Shown here: positions 6,280-12,767 of the stretch, in pieces | Position numbering within the stretch: position 1 is the first letter of the stretch | How the letters are laid out: each line of letters starts with the position of its first letter | Source of the DNA: a virus | Length of the DNA stretch: 64,000 bases | Direction: 5' to 3' (one strand) | Virus record (IMG/VR): IMGVR_UViG_3300037317_000025 | Coordinates: 11,347 to 75,346 of that record | The notes under the pieces: generated by a model | Database searches by the model: none | Told to the model about the DNA's origin: nothing | Seen by the model: only the letters and a program-made list of their open reading frames with translations | Program-made: the position numbers and the translations under genes

Positions 6280-7059
6280 TCAGGTGTCGCTCGTATGTTC
6301 TTTACCCGAATCGGCGCAATCGTTCAGGTACGCCAGCGCCAGCCGTGCCATCTGCGCAACAGCGGTGGCCGGGGCGACAATCTCGCAATCCTTACGCACC
6401 CGCGCCAGGGCTTCCCGGAACAGGTCAAAATCTTGCCGATGCGCGACATACACGGTGTCTGCCTCTGCGTCGGGCAATGCCGCCAGCGCGTCGTCAACGG
6501 TCTGGGCTTGTGTTTCCAGGAACACGAACAGCAGCGCCCGTGTCTGGAATTCGACATCGGGCGGCTTCACGCTGACAGGCTTGAGCTTCTGGTCAAGTTC
6601 GCGGGGATCAATGAACGACTCGAAGCGTGCCGAGATGTCGTCAATCTCTTGCCAGATGCGCTTGACCAGTGCCGGGTCGCTCTGGCCGACAATGCTGTTA
6701 TGTGCCAGTTGCTTGGACTTTACCCGCGCTCGTGGCAGGCCGTGATAACAGAGACACAGGATCGCCTGCATACCCGCAGCGCGAGCGGCGCGGACGCGGT
6801 GGTGGCCGCTGATGATCTCGTAGCGCTCATCGTTCCCCCGCGCAACCAGTGGTACGCTCTCTGGCGCGCCCGCCTCTTTGATGTTGTCTGCCAACTGGTC
6901 AAACATCTTTTGCGGCATGCTTTGCGCGTTCACGTCCTGCTCGCGCAGCAGGTCGAGCGACACCCAGGCCAGCGACAGGCTCTCCGGCAGGATGTCCCGA
7001 CTGATCGCCGCCAGTCGCTCGTTTATGCCCTGGTCTGCGGTGCCCATTTCTTGAGCCAT
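6280..7059 (-). CDS. ParB-like N-terminal domain protein
   Basis: NAQSM...LADNIKEAG, YEIISGHHRVRAA, QLAHNSIVG. Confidence 0.8.
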   Translation of the reverse strand: MAQEMGTADQGINERLAAISRDILPESLSLAWVSLDLLREQDVNAQSMPQKMFDQLADNIKEAGAPESVPLVARGNDERYEIISGHHRVRAARAAGMQAILCLCYHGLPRARVKSKQLAHNSIVGQSDPALVKRIWQEIDDISARFESFIDPRELDQKLKPVSVKPPDVEFQTRALLFVFLETQAQTVDDALAALPDAEADTVYVAHRQDFDLFREALARVRKDCEIVAPATAVAQMARLALAYLNDCADSGKEHTSDT

Positions 7060-8450
7060 ATGCCGATTGTCTCCTCTCGTGTACGGGCGACAATTGCCGC
7101 GCTATACGATAACTTGTAGCCACCTGTCTTCTGCGGTTCACGTCGGTCTAGCTTCAGAATGCCGCGTGCGGTCTTGTTCTCCGGGTGCTCAGTGAGCATC
7201 GTGGTTTGCACGTTTTCGGGCGCACCGCAGGCGACATACCACTGCTCATGGCCGAATGCATCCTGCCAGAACCAGGCCGATACCACCGATAGCAGGGTCA
7301 ACTTGTGCAGGCGGGCATAGGCTGGGTGCGGCACGCTGAAGGCAAAGGTCATATTCGCAGCATCCTTGTTGGCATGCTGGTGTGTTCCGCCGCCAGTTAT
7401 CAAAGTTTTCAGATGGGTGCCGACAATCGCCAGCAGCGCGCCGTCCAGGAACAGCCCGACATAGCGCTCGGTGCCGCTACTGTCGATTTTGTGAATGAAC
7501 AGATCGCGGTAATAGTCGCCGGTTTCCTTCTTGATCTGCTGCGCAACCAGCAGGCTGTCCGGCTGCACGGTGCCGTCAAACAGCGGGTACACGCCTTTCC
7601 CGGACACCATCCGGGCGCGGTTAATCGTGGCGGGCAACGGGGCGCGATTGGCGATAATCCAGTTGACCGCAGCCCGACGCAGGCTGCCGGGGCGATCTGC
7701 GAACACAGCCCGCCACGGGTCGCCCCAGAGCGGCGTGGGGTCTTCGCCGGGGGTGGCATAGTACATCAGCGTGTGCGCGGGGCTCCTGCCGAGCAGTTCC
7801 ATCAGGCGTTCGTAGTCCGACTCGTCAAACTGCGCCGCGTCCGGTTCGTCCCAGGTGAATATCTGGTCAATGCCTTTGAACATGCGCTGATAACCCTTGC
7901 TGTAGCGCGGCGGGTTTGCCAGGATCAGCGTGTCCGGATCGTGGCGGTGGGTTTCGAGGGTGTCCCACATATCGCGGGGGTGGTAGGTAAGACCGCCGAG
8001 GGTCTGGGCAACCGCCTGCACGCGCTCGTGCAGTTGGTTCAGATAGCGATCGGCGTTGCAGAGCAGTTCGGTGCGATGATCGGCTTTGTGCTGCTTGTCG
8101 CCGTCGTACTGACACACGCGGATCGCATACAACACGGCAACCGCTTTGCGCATGGGGGTGTCAAGCCAGGCCGCGACCGCGTGGCCGATGTCGCCCGCGT
8201 GCTCGGTCAGGGCAAGCCGCCAGTCGGTGCCCTGGATCGCGTTGCCGAGGGCAGTGCTGTAGATTGAGATGTCGCCGCAGACAATGGCCGAGGGCGGGAT
8301 GCCCGCCTGCACGGCAACGTGTGCCAGGGAAAAGCTGCCCGTGCAAGGGATGACCACCAGGCGCGGCGCGGTGGCCTGGATAACGTCTGCGGTGTAGGCG
8401 CGAGTCGGGCCGCGTGGGATGCCTTTGAATAAAATATCGGGTGCCGCCAT
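7023..8450 (-). CDS. putative adenine methyltransferase-like protein with GNAT-like C-terminal domain (DNA modification/antirestriction)
   Basis: IPCTGSF (motif I-like), GDISIYS, ILANPPRY (motif IV-like); C-terminal YARLHKL...TTM...RGILKL; coupled to the ParB-like gene. Confidence 0.55.
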   Translation of the reverse strand: MAAPDILFKGIPRGPTRAYTADVIQATAPRLVVIPCTGSFSLAHVAVQAGIPPSAIVCGDISIYSTALGNAIQGTDWRLALTEHAGDIGHAVAAWLDTPMRKAVAVLYAIRVCQYDGDKQHKADHRTELLCNADRYLNQLHERVQAVAQTLGGLTYHPRDMWDTLETHRHDPDTLILANPPRYSKGYQRMFKGIDQIFTWDEPDAAQFDESDYERLMELLGRSPAHTLMYYATPGEDPTPLWGDPWRAVFADRPGSLRRAAVNWIIANRAPLPATINRARMVSGKGVYPLFDGTVQPDSLLVAQQIKKETGDYYRDLFIHKIDSSGTERYVGLFLDGALLAIVGTHLKTLITGGGTHQHANKDAANMTFAFSVPHPAYARLHKLTLLSVVSAWFWQDAFGHEQWYVACGAPENVQTTMLTEHPENKTARGILKLDRREPQKTGGYKLSYSAAIVARTREETIGIWLKKWAPQTRA

Positions 8451-8495
8451 AAGGTTGTGTGGACCAGCCCGCCGGAGTTGCACCGGCTCTCTCAA

Positions 8496-9152
8496 CTAGC
8501 GTTGAGCGTCCTCCTCTAGACCAGGGCTGGATAGTGTGTCCTCGTCCTCGCTCAAGATTGGCGCAATCGCTTGCGCGTAGTCGAACGGCCTGATTTCTAG
8601 CGGTTGCCCGCCGGGGCCGCTGATCTCGTTTCGACTCGGCGCGTCCAGACCCAGCAACCGGGCGCGGCGCTCCATTGCCTTGATTGCCAGTTCCAGGTAG
8701 CGCACGTCGCCGTGCCCCCCGTGGGCAGTCTGCCGCATACGCTGCACGGCCATCTCGCCCGTGTCGCCGTCGCCTGTCAGGATGCGCTCGTAGTCGGTGC
8801 GCCCGTCCTTGCTCGCCTCCCATGCTCGCCACGCTTCGCCCGCCATCTGTTCAAGCTCCAGTAGTGTTGCGTCGTGCAGTTCGCCAATCGCCTCCTCGCG
8901 CTGCTTGCGCCACTCTTTCTTGAGTTCTGTCCAGTAATAATGGACAAGGTTGCGATTGATCGGCTCATCGTCGGGGGTGAGGATGTTGTCCCTGAGGAAT
9001 GCGTCCGTGAGCTGCGAGGCGATCTCTTCCTCGGTGTAGCGTTGCGCTTTGTAGCGCGCAACATCGCGGCGCAAACGTTCGCGCAGCGCTTTTGGAAATC
9101 GGGCTGCGAATTTTGGCACTCTGCCGGACATGTGAGCTTTCTTGCGTTCCAT
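8496..9152 (-). CDS. terminase small subunit-like protein
   Basis: N-terminal HTH, AWRAWEASK, MERRARLLGLDAP and EISGPGGQPL motifs typical of TerS. Confidence 0.65.
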   Translation of the reverse strand: MERKKAHMSGRVPKFAARFPKALRERLRRDVARYKAQRYTEEEIASQLTDAFLRDNILTPDDEPINRNLVHYYWTELKKEWRKQREEAIGELHDATLLELEQMAGEAWRAWEASKDGRTDYERILTGDGDTGEMAVQRMRQTAHGGHGDVRYLELAIKAMERRARLLGLDAPSRNEISGPGGQPLEIRPFDYAQAIAPILSEDEDTLSSPGLEEDAQR

Positions 9153-9245
9153 CGCTGCGATTACGCCAATATCTACGGGTATTATAGCATAATGAAAAAA
9201 AAGACTGCCCGAAAGCAGCCATTTGTCCTCAACTCAACTCACCTT

Positions 9246-9779
9246 ACCGCGCATTGACCATTGCAACGCCAGTGCAGCCCAGGACATCGGCGCTCATCAT
9301 CCTCTTGCACCCTGCTCAACCGCGCGTTGACCATTGCAACTTAGTCCTGGCGGCGGGTGGTACAGTTGTACCATTGCCCTTGCACCCTGCTCAACCGCGC
9401 ATTGACCATTGCAACGTCGGGCTGTGACCTCATAGCGTTGCGTGTACTTGTTCTTGCACCCTGCTCAACCGCGCATTGACCATTGCAACAACAATGAAGG
9501 CGCTGCTGCAGGAGCACGACGAGCTTGCACCCTGCTCAACCGCGCATTGACCGTTGCAACGTGATGAGTTCCAGTCCTGGCTGATCCTCATTATACTTGC
9601 ACCCTGCTCAACCGCGCATTGACCATTGCAACTGCTGCTGCTGATATACACAGGCTTGCCCAGGAAGCTCTTGCACCCTACTCAACCGCGTGTTGACCAT
9701 TGCAACATATGTTTGACGATTGCAACGATGCTCACAACTCTCCTTGCACCCTGCTCAACCGCGCATTGACCATTGCAAC
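9246..9779. CRISPR. CRISPR array: 7 full 37-bp repeats, one 5'-truncated repeat, 7 spacers (34-38 nt)
   Basis: repeat CTTGCACCCTGCTCAACCGCGCATTGACCATTGCAAC at 9304, 9379, 9453, 9524, 9596, 9670, 9743; last 22 nt only at 9246-9267; unique spacers of 36, 38, 37, 34, 35, 37, 36 nt. Confidence 0.97.
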
Positions 9780-11245
9780 TCGTCAAACATATGTAGTTGA
9801 TACAGAGTCGAGTGTTCAGATGTGTTCTGCACATCAGTCGGGGATGGCACCCCGCGCTCACTCGTTGAGGCGTGCGCCTCTTCGCAGTTCACAGGCGTAC
9901 TAGCAGACCGTTCCGCCTCCCTGCGCACGTCACTTGGGGCATTGCCCCGCGCAACCTGCCCGTTGCACACGGGTGTCTCTGGATAGTGTTTCGCGTTCGC
10001 TCGGTTGCCAATATTCCGAGCGGCGTTGATGTCTCTATCGTGTTCAGTTCCGCACTCACCGCACTTCCAGGCGCGGGTGCGAAGCTCAATCTTGCGCGGC
10101 GATTTCACCCCGCAGGCGCTACAGGCTTGCGTGGTGTTGGCTGCGTCCACTTCGTAGTATGCGCGACCTGCCGCTTCGGCCTTCTCTTTGATCTTCTGGC
10201 GCAACTTGCCAGGGGCGGCGCTTTGCATCGACTTGTTGAGCGAGCGCTTCAGCTTGCGCCCCCGGTGCTTGTAGCGCTTGCCATTCTTGCGCTTGGCTTT
10301 GGTCATGTGCGCAAAGTTGATGTCCTCGACGCCAATGGTGTCAGCCGTGTCCACAATGCGCTTTGCAATGTAGTGCTGCTGGTGATCGCGCTTGCGCGTG
10401 GTCTTCTGATGGAGCTTTGCAATACGCGCCCGCCGCCGCTTCGTGCGGTTGCTGTTCGGATCGGCCTTCTTGCCCGCGCCCCTGGTTTTGCGCTTCGGTG
10501 CGACCAGGCGCTCCAGGACACGCTTGCGTTTCTCTAGCTTACGGATGCTATCATCCTGGCTATAGGTGCGCCCATCCGACAGCGCGGCGACATCCTGCGT
10601 GTCGCCACGGTGCTTGCAGTTCAGGTCAACGCCTACCGTCTTGCCTGTCTCTGGCAACGGTTCCGGCTCTGGCACCTCGCAGCTAAACGAGATATACCAG
10701 TCGTTTTTCACGCGAGTGATATGCACCTGCTTGATAACCGCGTCGTCTGGTATGGCACGGTGCATGCGCACGCGCAAGTGTCCAAGTTTGCCCGCGCCCG
10801 CCAGTTGCCAGTAGGCATAGCGGCGGCTCTCTCCGACAATTCGCGTCCCTCGCTCGGAGCCGCGAAACGCCAGACCCAAATCAGCAGGCCGCTCCGCCCA
10901 GCGCGGATTGCCTGCCGGAAACCGCTTCGCCTTGATGTTGCGAAACATATTTTTATAGGCAGTATCAACGCGCCCACTGATGCCAAAGTTGCCGCCCATC
11001 GTGTCAGCAGGCACATCGCGCCAGTGGACTATGGTTGCCCGCATGCGCGTGATGAACTTCCCCTGCGTGCCAGATGTGACCGTCGGCACATACCGCGCCT
11101 GCTGTTGCTTCAGCCGGTACGCATCGCGACGCTGCTGGATAAGCACGCGCTGCACTTCCCAACACGCCTGCTGCCACGCCTCAAGCGTGCGCTGCTGGTC
11201 TGCGTTCGGATAGAGCCGGTATTTGTATGAGCGTGCTATAGTCAT
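9755..11245 (-). CDS. TnpB/Cas12f-like RNA-guided RuvC nuclease (496 aa), CRISPR-associated
   Basis: N-terminal SYKYRLYPN; RuvC-I GVDLN, RuvC-II IGVEDI, zinc finger CSAC...CGEC, RuvC-III HDRDINAARNI; stop codon inside the last repeat. Confidence 0.92.
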   Translation of the reverse strand: MTIARSYKYRLYPNADQQRTLEAWQQACWEVQRVLIQQRRDAYRLKQQQARYVPTVTSGTQGKFITRMRATIVHWRDVPADTMGGNFGISGRVDTAYKNMFRNIKAKRFPAGNPRWAERPADLGLAFRGSERGTRIVGESRRYAYWQLAGAGKLGHLRVRMHRAIPDDAVIKQVHITRVKNDWYISFSCEVPEPEPLPETGKTVGVDLNCKHRGDTQDVAALSDGRTYSQDDSIRKLEKRKRVLERLVAPKRKTRGAGKKADPNSNRTKRRRARIAKLHQKTTRKRDHQQHYIAKRIVDTADTIGVEDINFAHMTKAKRKNGKRYKHRGRKLKRSLNKSMQSAAPGKLRQKIKEKAEAAGRAYYEVDAANTTQACSACGVKSPRKIELRTRAWKCGECGTEHDRDINAARNIGNRANAKHYPETPVCNGQVARGNAPSDVRREAERSASTPVNCEEAHASTSERGVPSPTDVQNTSEHSTLYQLHMFDELQWSMRG

Positions 11246-11251
11246 ATAATG

Positions 11252-11290
11252 ATTATAGCACATTGCACACATAGTTGCAAGTGCTATAAT
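11252..11290. promoter_or_regulatory. overlapping divergent promoters forming an inverted repeat (effector leftward, HTH-terL rightward)
   Basis: ATTATAGCAC...GTGCTATAAT; minus strand TTGCAA-17-TATAAT, plus strand TTGCAC-16-TATAAT, both with TGn. Confidence 0.8.
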
Positions 11291-11326
11291 AGGGATAGCA
11301 CAAACAAGATACAAGGTGAGGTTGAC

Positions 11327-11554
11327 ATGGTAAGATGGGCACTCAAGGAGATCGCAGAGCCGGAGCGCTGGTCGGCGCGGCGGTTGGCAAAAGAGTCGGG
11401 GTTGTCGTATAGTGCAGTGTATTACATCTGGGCGAATAAAACGCGCCGGGTGGATTTCGATACGCTTGAGAAGCTCTGCCGAATACTCAAGGTCGGGCCG
11501 GGTGATTTGATTGTCTGCGACGAACCACAAAACACCACAACTCCGCATCCCTAG
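11327..11554 (+). CDS. XRE/Cro-C1-type HTH transcriptional regulator
   Basis: SARRLAKESGLSYSAVYYIWANKTRRVDFDTLEKLCRILKVGPGDL; SD GGTGAGG. Confidence 0.85.
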   Translation: MVRWALKEIAEPERWSARRLAKESGLSYSAVYYIWANKTRRVDFDTLEKLCRILKVGPGDLIVCDEPQNTTTPHP

Positions 11555-12767
11555 ACTGCGCCCGGATCAATCGGCCATCGCCCGCCACCCGGCGAAGCGA
11601 CAAATCGTGGCGATGGGGCGGCGCTGGGGCAAGACCGTGCTGGGCGGGGCGCTGGCGCTGGCGTGCGCGGCGAACGGCGCAAAGGTTGCATGGGTTGCGC
11701 CGACCTACAAGAACAGCAGGCCGTTGTGGCGATATTGCGAACAATCAGTCGCCCACCTGAAACGCACACCCTATGTCGAGGTCAACAAGTCCGAGCGAAC
11801 CGTCACCTTCCCGCAGACCAATGGCAGCATCGCTATCTACAGTGCAGACAATGCCGATTCGGCTCGCGGCGAGTCGTTCGATCTGGTCGTCATCGACGAA
11901 GCCAGCAGGATTAGCGAGGATGCCTACCAGGCCGTCTTTGAGCCAACCGTGGCCGACCGCGACGGGATAATCCTGCTCATCAGCACACCGCTTGGCCGCA
12001 ATTATTTTTGGAAACTCTGGCAACAAGGCCAACTCGCGGAGAACCACCACCGTATCAAATCCTGGCAGGCTCCGAGCAACGCTAACCCGATGCCAGGTAT
12101 TCAGCGGGCATTCCATCTGGCGAAGGAACACACGCCGGAACGCACGTTCTTGCAGGAATGGATGGCGCAATTTCTGGACGAGGCCGGGGTGTTTCGCTTT
12201 GTCTACGACCGCGCCATCGCCGCGCCGCTTGCCCAGGGCGAGGAGGGGCGCACGTATGTCTACGGCTGCGACTGGGCGGGCAACAGCGGACAGGGCGACT
12301 TCACCGCCTTTGCCGTGATGGACGCGGAACGCAAGACACTGGTGCATCTCGACAGGTTCCACGGCACGAGCTACGAACAGCAGATGAACCGCCTGCTGGG
12401 GCTGGCGCAGCGCTTCCCGCCGACGGCGATTGTGGCCGAGGTGAACTCGATGGGCGGGCCGGTGTTCGAGCAACTGGTCAACGCAGAACTGCCGATGGTG
12501 CCGTGGGTCGCCAGCAACGCCACCAAGAAGGTCGGTGTTGAGGCGCTGCAACTGGCACTGGAGCAGGGCACGATCACGCTGCTGAATGAGCCGACGCTTG
12601 TCCACGAGATGACCGCGTATGAAGCCAGCAGCACGGCGAGCGGACTGGTGCGCTATTCTGCGCCGGAGGGCGATCACGATGACTGCGTGATGGCGGTGAT
12701 GATGGCGTGGCTGGGCTGCCTGAACAGTGGGCCGATGCTGCTGAGTGAGGGCGCGGGGCGGTATTAG
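11511..12767 (+). CDS. terL: terminase large subunit
   Basis: Walker A GRRWGKT, Walker B VVIDEA, ISTP, nuclease YGCDWA...GDFTA and HDDCVMA. Confidence 0.93.
   Translation: MSATNHKTPQLRIPRLRPDQSAIARHPAKRQIVAMGRRWGKTVLGGALALACAANGAKVAWVAPTYKNSRPLWRYCEQSVAHLKRTPYVEVNKSERTVTFPQTNGSIAIYSADNADSARGESFDLVVIDEASRISEDAYQAVFEPTVADRDGIILLISTPLGRNYFWKLWQQGQLAENHHRIKSWQAPSNANPMPGIQRAFHLAKEHTPERTFLQEWMAQFLDEAGVFRFVYDRAIAAPLAQGEEGRTYVYGCDWAGNSGQGDFTAFAVMDAERKTLVHLDRFHGTSYEQQMNRLLGLAQRFPPTAIVAEVNSMGGPVFEQLVNAELPMVPWVASNATKKVGVEALQLALEQGTITLLNEPTLVHEMTAYEASSTASGLVRYSAPEGDHDDCVMAVMMAWLGCLNSGPMLLSEGAGRY

Follow-up and report, generated by a model that had tools for sequence, protein, structure and literature searches.

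The 75,346-base IMG/VR virus record IMGVR_UViG_3300037317_000025, classed as linear and about 71% complete, likely carries a phage-borne minimal type V-like CRISPR module. It comprises a TnpB-sized RuvC nuclease (P0001), its own seven-spacer array and a Cro/C1-type helix-turn-helix (HTH) gene, combined in a 2.3-kb accessory cassette. The module is located in the 64,000-nucleotide stretch analyzed here (positions 11,347 to 75,346 of the record), referred to as the window, whose numbering is used throughout. Since both spacers with a match are aimed at relatives of the nuclease gene, the module most likely serves conflict between mobile elements with competing cassette versions, although this function is proposed with less confidence than the module itself. 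An initial annotation of the window had suggested a TnpB-to-Cas12 transition in a phage; the TnpB-like nuclease with an array stands, while the novelty was overstated, as the locus is best read as a TranC / V-U / Cas12r-like minimal type V system, a kind that had already been described. New at this locus are the end of the reading frame inside repeat 1, the polymorphism of the HTH-bearing cassette and spacers that match nuclease-gene relatives.

Nuclease gene, array and guide RNA

The nuclease gene (9755–11245, minus strand) codes for a 496-amino acid (aa) TnpB-family protein and is followed directly, on the same strand, by an array of eight 37-nt repeats (GTTGCAATGGTCAATGCGCGGTTGAGCAGGGTGCAAG) and seven spacers (9231–9779). 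The repeats occupy positions 9779–9743, 9706–9670, 9632–9596, 9560–9524, 9489–9453, 9415–9379, 9340–9304 and 9267–9231, with a start-to-start spacing of 71–75 nt. Four of them are identical, three differ at 1–3 nt and the last is degenerate across its 3′ 15 nt, being decayed only in the half that would be the handle for a following spacer. All seven spacers are unique and 34–38 nt long. The stop codon TGA (9757–9755) is located inside repeat 1, from which the final eight codons and the stop are read. This arrangement was correctly recognized in the initial annotation, whereas the start it gave, 9246, falls within the degenerate last repeat; the true extent is from about 9195, at a terminator-like site, to 11554.

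A promoter-like site, TTGCAA-17-TGnTATAAT (11252–11280, minus strand), was found by a consensus scan, with 10 of 12 matches plus the TG extension. It ends 6 nt ahead of the ATG of the nuclease gene, as in leaderless-type transcripts. The last repeat is followed immediately by an intrinsic-terminator-like hairpin with a 7-bp stem and a run of eight T (9195–9220, minus strand). Both sites are consensus matches only, and since they bracket the gene and the array, they suggest a single transcription unit. Upstream of the nuclease, a divergent gene encodes the Cro/C1-type HTH protein (PF13443, E = 1e-13), in agreement with the initial annotation; its most likely extent is 11327–11554 on the plus strand, giving 75 aa from an ATG preceded by a ribosome-binding site. 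This gene falls within the segment apparently missing from related phages.

The whole 75-kb record yielded no hidden Markov model (HMM) match to Cas1, Cas2 or Y1 TnpA, and no search aimed at Cas4 was made; the previously claimed lack of these genes thus holds for the first three and, for Cas4, lies outside the search. The nuclease gene and the array are present in one copy each within the record, and the consensus repeat has no second occurrence elsewhere in it. As an exact pattern, the repeat has no match in IMG/VR, nor do spacers 2, 5 and 6. The whole array produced only chance-level matches against cultured phages and plasmids, and the five spacers other than 1 and 5 have no match in the record, the fetched loci, cultured phages or plasmids.

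The junction of nuclease gene and array was read at the DNA level in two loci, the window and L090, the latter originating from an 83-kb IMG/VR phage contig. The initial annotation had proposed a search for homologs with adjacent arrays as a check, and L090 is such a case. It encodes a nuclease 39% identical to P0001, with a stop codon followed after 16 nt by 37-nt repeats at positions 6568, 6644 and 6718. In a tblastx comparison of L090 with positions 1–22000 of the window the nuclease gene alone was in common, indicating that the module occurs in two unrelated phage backgrounds. The repeats of the two loci share their length and ends (GTTGCRA...TGNAAG) and are otherwise different. The coding tail of L090 contains, about 120 nt ahead of repeat 1, a 15/18 match to the reverse complement of its own repeat, and the minimum-energy fold (z = −3.1) shows this stretch paired with repeat 1; by our estimate such an anti-repeat would arise by chance in about 2 cases in 1000. 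A RuvC single effector adjoining an array, with the link kept in a homolog, is thus found at the two loci, and on this sequence evidence the nuclease and the array look functionally linked.

In the window, the coding tail (about aa 416–488; 9780–10000, minus strand) is predicted to be disordered, ends with QLHMFD and is a candidate omega/tracr-like scaffold. The window repeat is able to fold on itself, and the fold of the tail, repeat 1 and spacer 1 has z = −2.3. Unlike this self-folding repeat, the repeat of L090 is unstructured and is accompanied by a clear anti-repeat in the tail of the open reading frame (ORF) (L090 positions 6447–6476 and 6568–6790). The two modules may therefore use different forms of guide RNA. 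For the window a tail-derived scaffold is plausible; a CRISPR RNA independent of trans-activating CRISPR RNA (tracrRNA), as reported for Cas12r, is plausible too.

At positions 9699–9803 of the window, a stretch made up of the last 13 nt before repeat 1 and 6 nt of the repeat itself is complementary, in inverted orientation, to the 3′ end of spacer 1. In a precursor RNA the two could pair in a hairpin of about 21 bp, with repeat 1 and the stop codon enclosed by it. A search of Rfam gave only a sub-threshold match to mir-190, reflecting this leader/spacer-1 hairpin.

The tail bears two further features. The motif QLHMFD (9782–9799) resembles beta-clamp-binding motifs, and similar motifs (QLSLF, QLSLDL, QLELFE, QMSFFD) occur in 13 of 33 subfamily proteins, among them P0009, P0012, P0013, P0015, P0017, P0018, P0022, P0023, P0123 and P0126. 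They are located after the disordered basic tail, within the last 30 residues and mostly at the very end. A putative beta-clamp motif has been noted earlier at the C-terminus of cyanobacterial IS605 OrfB (PMC3971601). At 9818–9848 sibling alleles differ by a six-base block and a compensating +1/−1 indel pair that keeps the frame, which hints at translation of the disordered tail.

In the proposed mechanism, a single minus-strand transcript would start at the promoter-like site (11280–11252), span both ORF and array and stop at the terminator-like site (9220–9195), and would be cut into guides consisting of the 3′ part of a repeat and a spacer. The disordered coding tail beside repeat 1 may provide an omega/tracr-like scaffold, and the guide-loaded nuclease would cut matching DNA adjoining a protospacer-adjacent or target-adjacent motif (PAM/TAM).

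Nuclease family and related systems

P0001 belongs to the TnpB family, as the initial annotation had stated. It matches NCBIfam model NF040570 (guided_TnpB) with 205 bits against a cut-off of 100, over residues 7–415, and the Pfam models PF07282 (76.6 bits), PF01385 (59 bits) and PF12323 (22.5 bits), covering OrfB_IS605 and Cas12f1-like_TNB. The previously reported RuvC triad and zinc finger are present: the motifs GVDLN (205–209), VEDI (306–309) and HDRD (402–405), and CxxC pairs at 375–378 and 395–398. Residues D207, E307 and D405 and the four cysteines (C375, C378, C395, C398) are invariant or nearly so across 28 relatives. The IS200_TnpB equivalog NF038281 was missed (141.5 bits, cut-off 425), and no named Cas12 model reaches its cut-off on this protein, V_cas_c2c8 giving 112.8 bits (cut-off 350) and CRISPR_Cas12f2 65.4 bits (cut-off 450). 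The PADLOC models for Cas12f, Cas12u2 and Cas12u4 score 140–160 bits (149 for Cas12u2 and 143.5, with no curated cut-off, for Cas12u4), and none is specific.

An AlphaFold2 model built on 28 sequences has a mean predicted local distance difference test score (pLDDT) of 81.6. Residues 1–425 are modelled with confidence and residues 428–496 are disordered, with pLDDT below 50 for 428–443 and 452–496. The top fold match in PDB is ISDra2 TnpB (8H1J, TMt 0.82), followed by AsCas12f (0.62) and LaTranC (9JFQ, 0.60). Among proteins of solved structure, those closest in sequence are a designed TnpB, Cas12n (9J09; residues 160–418 only, E = 1.4e-25) and ISDra2 TnpB. Judging from the predicted structure, P0001 is TnpB-sized and free of the domain accretion typical of established Cas12 subtypes. 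Its effector core of about 415 residues is of interest in the search for compact genome editors.

Two database searches recovered about 30 proteins at 40–56% identity to P0001, after which identity falls sharply to 35% or less for ordinary TnpBs. In a quick maximum-likelihood tree of 33 lineage members and the 15 nearest generic TnpBs, the two groups are separated with an SH-aLRT (Shimodaira-Hasegawa-like approximate likelihood ratio test) support of 99 and a branch length of 1.06. P0001 groups with P0002–P0004, while separate clades hold P0012/P0015/P0023 and the L090 protein. Of the phylogeny envisaged in the initial annotation, which was to include Cas12 clades, this tree supplies the split from generic TnpBs, its scope being the lineage and those TnpBs.

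Nearly all lineage members were seen on a single contig each. Searches with P0001 in 401 Chloroflexota genomes and with P0016 in 169 Chloroflexia genomes found no subfamily member among the 3–9 candidates scored per genome. Scans of genome and metagenome contigs with generic TnpB patterns likewise revealed no subfamily member among the matches listed. Viral contigs gave nothing with P0001 alone and only L090 with two alignments. The single-contig occurrence and the lack of findings in Chloroflexota and Chloroflexia genomes do not fit an insertion sequence (IS) present in many copies, and on sequence comparison the P0001 lineage is separate and rare. This compact lineage of about 30 proteins, linked to CRISPR arrays in two unrelated phage backgrounds, adds to the known transposon-to-CRISPR intermediates.

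Several groups of such intermediates are relevant here. Forty V-U* branches of CRISPR-associated TnpB derivatives have been described, most of which have an array downstream and lack further cas genes; one branch is associated with an HTH protein (Altae-Tran et al., PMC10691335). TranC systems are defined as transposon-CRISPR intermediates (Jin et al., Cell 2025, via PMC13565253). Clades 3, 9, 11 and 20 of TranC are treated in bioRxiv 10.64898/2026.03.27.714800, which also reports CauTranC9, a TnpB-sized system from a Caudoviricetes genome with 38-bp repeats. In TranC, as in the locus studied here, a short array immediately follows the gene of a TnpB-like nuclease, and further cas genes are lacking. 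In contrast, the predicted fold of P0001 is closer to ISDra2 TnpB than to LaTranC, and the ORF stop inside repeat 1, the HTH gene in the module and the two spacers matching nuclease relatives distinguish the locus in a comparison drawn from descriptions rather than TranC sequences.

In Thermus Lalka phages, Cas12r-CRISPR is a phage-borne TnpB with an array that has been shown by experiment to work; its spacers are aimed at other mobile elements, and for which a role in inter-element conflict was proposed (bioRxiv 10.64898/2026.04.20.719267). Cas12r has 564 aa and degenerate 29-bp repeats, uses no tracrRNA and is thought to be thermophile-specific, whereas P0001 has 496 aa, is linked to repeats of 37 nt and originates from metagenomes of tidal flats. 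Identity between P0001 and the Thermus phage TnpBs of the phage collection is only 28%, and the likeness to Cas12r is one of description.

Cas12n (V-N, formerly V-U4) and V-U2 (C2c8) share with P0001 the compact effector, the downstream array and an unstructured C-terminal tail beside the array; the tail region of Cas12n was reported to hold the tracrRNA (bioRxiv 10.64898/2026.03.27.714800). Unlike these effectors, P0001 is modelled without expanded REC or WED domains, and the generic TnpB model scores higher on it. Its tail is disordered, yet a significant anti-repeat is present in L090 only.

The TnpB of IS200/IS605 elements (ISDra2; 8H1J, 8EXA) resembles P0001 in the full-length HMM match and in having the guide-bearing sequence directly 3′ of, and overlapping, the end of the ORF. 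The downstream position of the array thus supports the earlier suggestion that it sits where the omega-RNA guide would be. Unlike such elements, the locus has no TnpA, is present in a single copy, carries a seven-spacer array in place of one flank-derived guide and comes with a regulator gene and with promoter-like and terminator-like sites of its own. Furthermore, the lineage was not found in the 570 Chloroflexota genomes searched, at the 3–9 candidates scored in each.

The likeness to TnpB raises the alternative that P0001 is an ordinary or decaying IS605-type TnpB using its own omega-RNA, and that the Cas-less mini-array next to it is read by a type I or type III complex of the host. Virus-borne mini-arrays dependent on host Cas proteins are an established phenomenon. 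The best scores against generic TnpB models, the TnpB fold, the lack of Cas1 and Cas2 matches in the record and the weakness of anti-repeats in the window are all in line with this explanation. It does not account, however, for the recurrence of the gene-array junction in the unrelated phage L090, with another repeat and a matching anti-repeat in the ORF tail, nor for the single-copy gene without TnpA that ends within repeat 1. The failure to find the repeat in IMG/VR and the behavior of array, nuclease and HTH gene as one insertion/deletion block, described below, also speak against it. We consider this alternative improbable and prefer the reading of nuclease and array as one phage-borne type V-like module.

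Cassette variation and spacer targets in tidal-flat metagenomes

Parts of the window are contained in 16 public sequencing runs, all labelled tidal flat metagenome (2020). Logan contigs of four of them (X1, X2, X3 and X5) were aligned to positions 8900–11700 at 88% likeness. Joints that skip the cassette connect 9198 with 11535 in X3 (side of 36 nt) and 9189 with 11534 in X5 (side of 28 nt), with 14–22 other letters between, and the depth of the flanks is 2–10 times that of the cassette. It is thus probable that a single segment of about 2.3 kb (9190–11535), containing the terminator-like site, the array, the nuclease gene and the HTH gene, is absent from related phages.

The array itself is also variable. 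A joint in X2, 9705 to 9780, removes exactly the unit of repeat 1 and spacer 1, and X3 contains further joints and a 1479-nt contig with different array content, indicating that arrays vary by whole repeat-spacer units between samples. The same metagenomes contain the cassette, apparently cassette-free relatives, array variants and matched targets, which is unusually direct population evidence.

Spacer 5 (9416–9452, minus strand) equals 12 codons of the nuclease genes P0015 and P0023 of a sister clade. Its translation, NKYTQRYEVTAR, is identical to both at 12 of 12 positions in blastx, and matches P0012 and P0018 at 11 of 12. Contigs in X1, X2, X3 and X5 match just 9410–9452, that is, spacer 5 and 6 nt, with unrelated flanks of 51–255 nt on each side. 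When joined to the matched 43 nt, the flanks in X2, X3 and X5 translate to PSQEQYGLYPNKYTQRYEVTARRCTNEAWRAVPA, which is the sequence of P0015/P0023 in the family alignment. P0001 is unrelated across this segment, so that spacer 5 does not target its own gene.

Spacer 1 (9707–9742, minus strand), the leader-proximal one, corresponds, in reverse complement, to a 3′ coding tail still present in sibling alleles, the place of which is taken here by repeat 1. Its reverse complement translates to MFDDCNDAHNS, compared with MFDGCNDARNS in P0124, a fragment with 95% identity that runs past ...LYQLHMFD with GCNDARNSPAKSNKKRV...; the cluster mate P0384 reads MLDDCNDQRAIE. Opposite-strand joints 9706/9794 in X3 and X5 show the arrangement at the DNA level. 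On the simplest reading, spacer 1 was taken from a sibling allele and added gene-proximally, X2 representing the state without it; X2 may instead have lost the unit.

Two of the seven spacers thus match rival versions of the nuclease gene in the same tidal-flat samples, which is new for this locus. These matches suggest conflict between rival cassettes and lend some support to the initial annotation, which had proposed a use against competing phages. They also make testable the idea that phage modules fight over their own locus. Such targets might dominate because a phage whose siblings are nearly identical to it could avoid harming itself only by aiming at the variable cassette. A more specific and rather tentative possibility is that of an allele-drive weapon: the array would gather guides against rival versions of its own gene, the newest being gene-proximal despite the lack of Cas1-Cas2 in the record, and cutting would exclude or convert the rival. 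If so, the homing logic of TnpB would be extended to a multi-guide CRISPR array.

Variation is also seen at the 5′ end of the gene. In the four metagenomes, positions 11147–11235 (N-terminal codons 4–33) are 10–20 times deeper than the rest of the gene, and translation of the loose contig ends in this region gives WCIKQRR, a sequence of the P0012 type. This suggests a 5′ module shared or recombining among family members. The first 33 or so codons and the upstream promoter region (to about 11275) are alike in P0012 and the window.

An explanation related to the conflict reading is that the cassette is mainly a selfish RNA-guided homing or allele-drive element, the guides of which cut rival alleles in co-infecting elements so that repair spreads the cassette, phage protection being secondary. 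A homing-nuclease role of TnpB is established (reviewed in PMC13565253), both matched spacers hit nuclease-gene relatives, related phages seem to differ in whether they carry the cassette and in which allele, and the deeper N-terminal region of about 90 nt, together with the P0012-like sequence upstream, could be a homology arm. However, the P0015-type gene is covered more deeply than the phage flanks, which implies that many copies of the target are located elsewhere; none of the spacers corresponds to the junction of the empty site, for five of them no match is known and no gene conversion was observed. A predominantly selfish role is therefore unlikely, though somewhat less so than a host-read mini-array.

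According to another explanation, the repeats are a decaying or structural tandem duplication of the 3′ end of the omega-RNA and the apparent spacers are recombination debris. The birth of arrays de novo through duplication of an omega-RNA segment has been proposed (PMC10691335), spacer 1 repeats nearby sibling sequence in inverted form and a repeat-like segment is present in the tail at 9955–9939. Seven well-kept 37-nt repeats, regular spacer lengths, differences between samples by whole units, the origin of one spacer from the gene body of a distant paralog and the intact catalytic residues are hard to reconcile with debris, making this the least credible of the alternatives, with very little probability.

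Several points weigh against a phage-borne CRISPR module directed at rival cassettes. Only one locus besides the window was examined at the DNA level, and the anti-repeat search in the window gave only short complementary runs (GCACGCCTCAAC, CTGTATCAAC), no better than in shuffled sequence. Spacer 1 could stem from a local duplication-inversion rather than from spacer uptake. On its 5′ side, the protospacer of spacer 5 is preceded by ...GTATCCT in X2, X3 and X5 and by ...GCGCCCCG in X1; with this flank varying between contigs and that of spacer 1 not recovered, no PAM is derivable. The P0015-type target may reside in a phage, a plasmid or a host IS, the cassette-absent joints rest on sides of 28–36 nt at 88% likeness, and none of the runs containing the stretch is listed as RNA. 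The population joints, the spacer matches and the recurrence of the gene-array junction nevertheless leave the module, with its own array and regulator, as the likely reading of the locus.

Neighboring genes

The cassette is flanked downstream by a 218-aa protein (8496–9152) adjoining the array, which has no Pfam match. It shares the motif GDxRFLxxxIxAxxRxAxLxGxD (E = 8e-6) with a 221-aa protein encoded downstream of the L090 module (L090 positions 8538–9203). Farther downstream, the minus strand at 7023–8495 codes for a fusion of a DAM-like methylase of phage type with a GNAT-like domain (PF22555 and PF22559), and an adjoining minus-strand ORF (6280–7059) appears ParB-like by eye alone. On the other side, the large terminase ORF is listed at 11511–12767, with its start probably at about 11613 rather than 11511; its relative P0264, of 384 aa, is 99% identical and spans 92% of the listed ORF.

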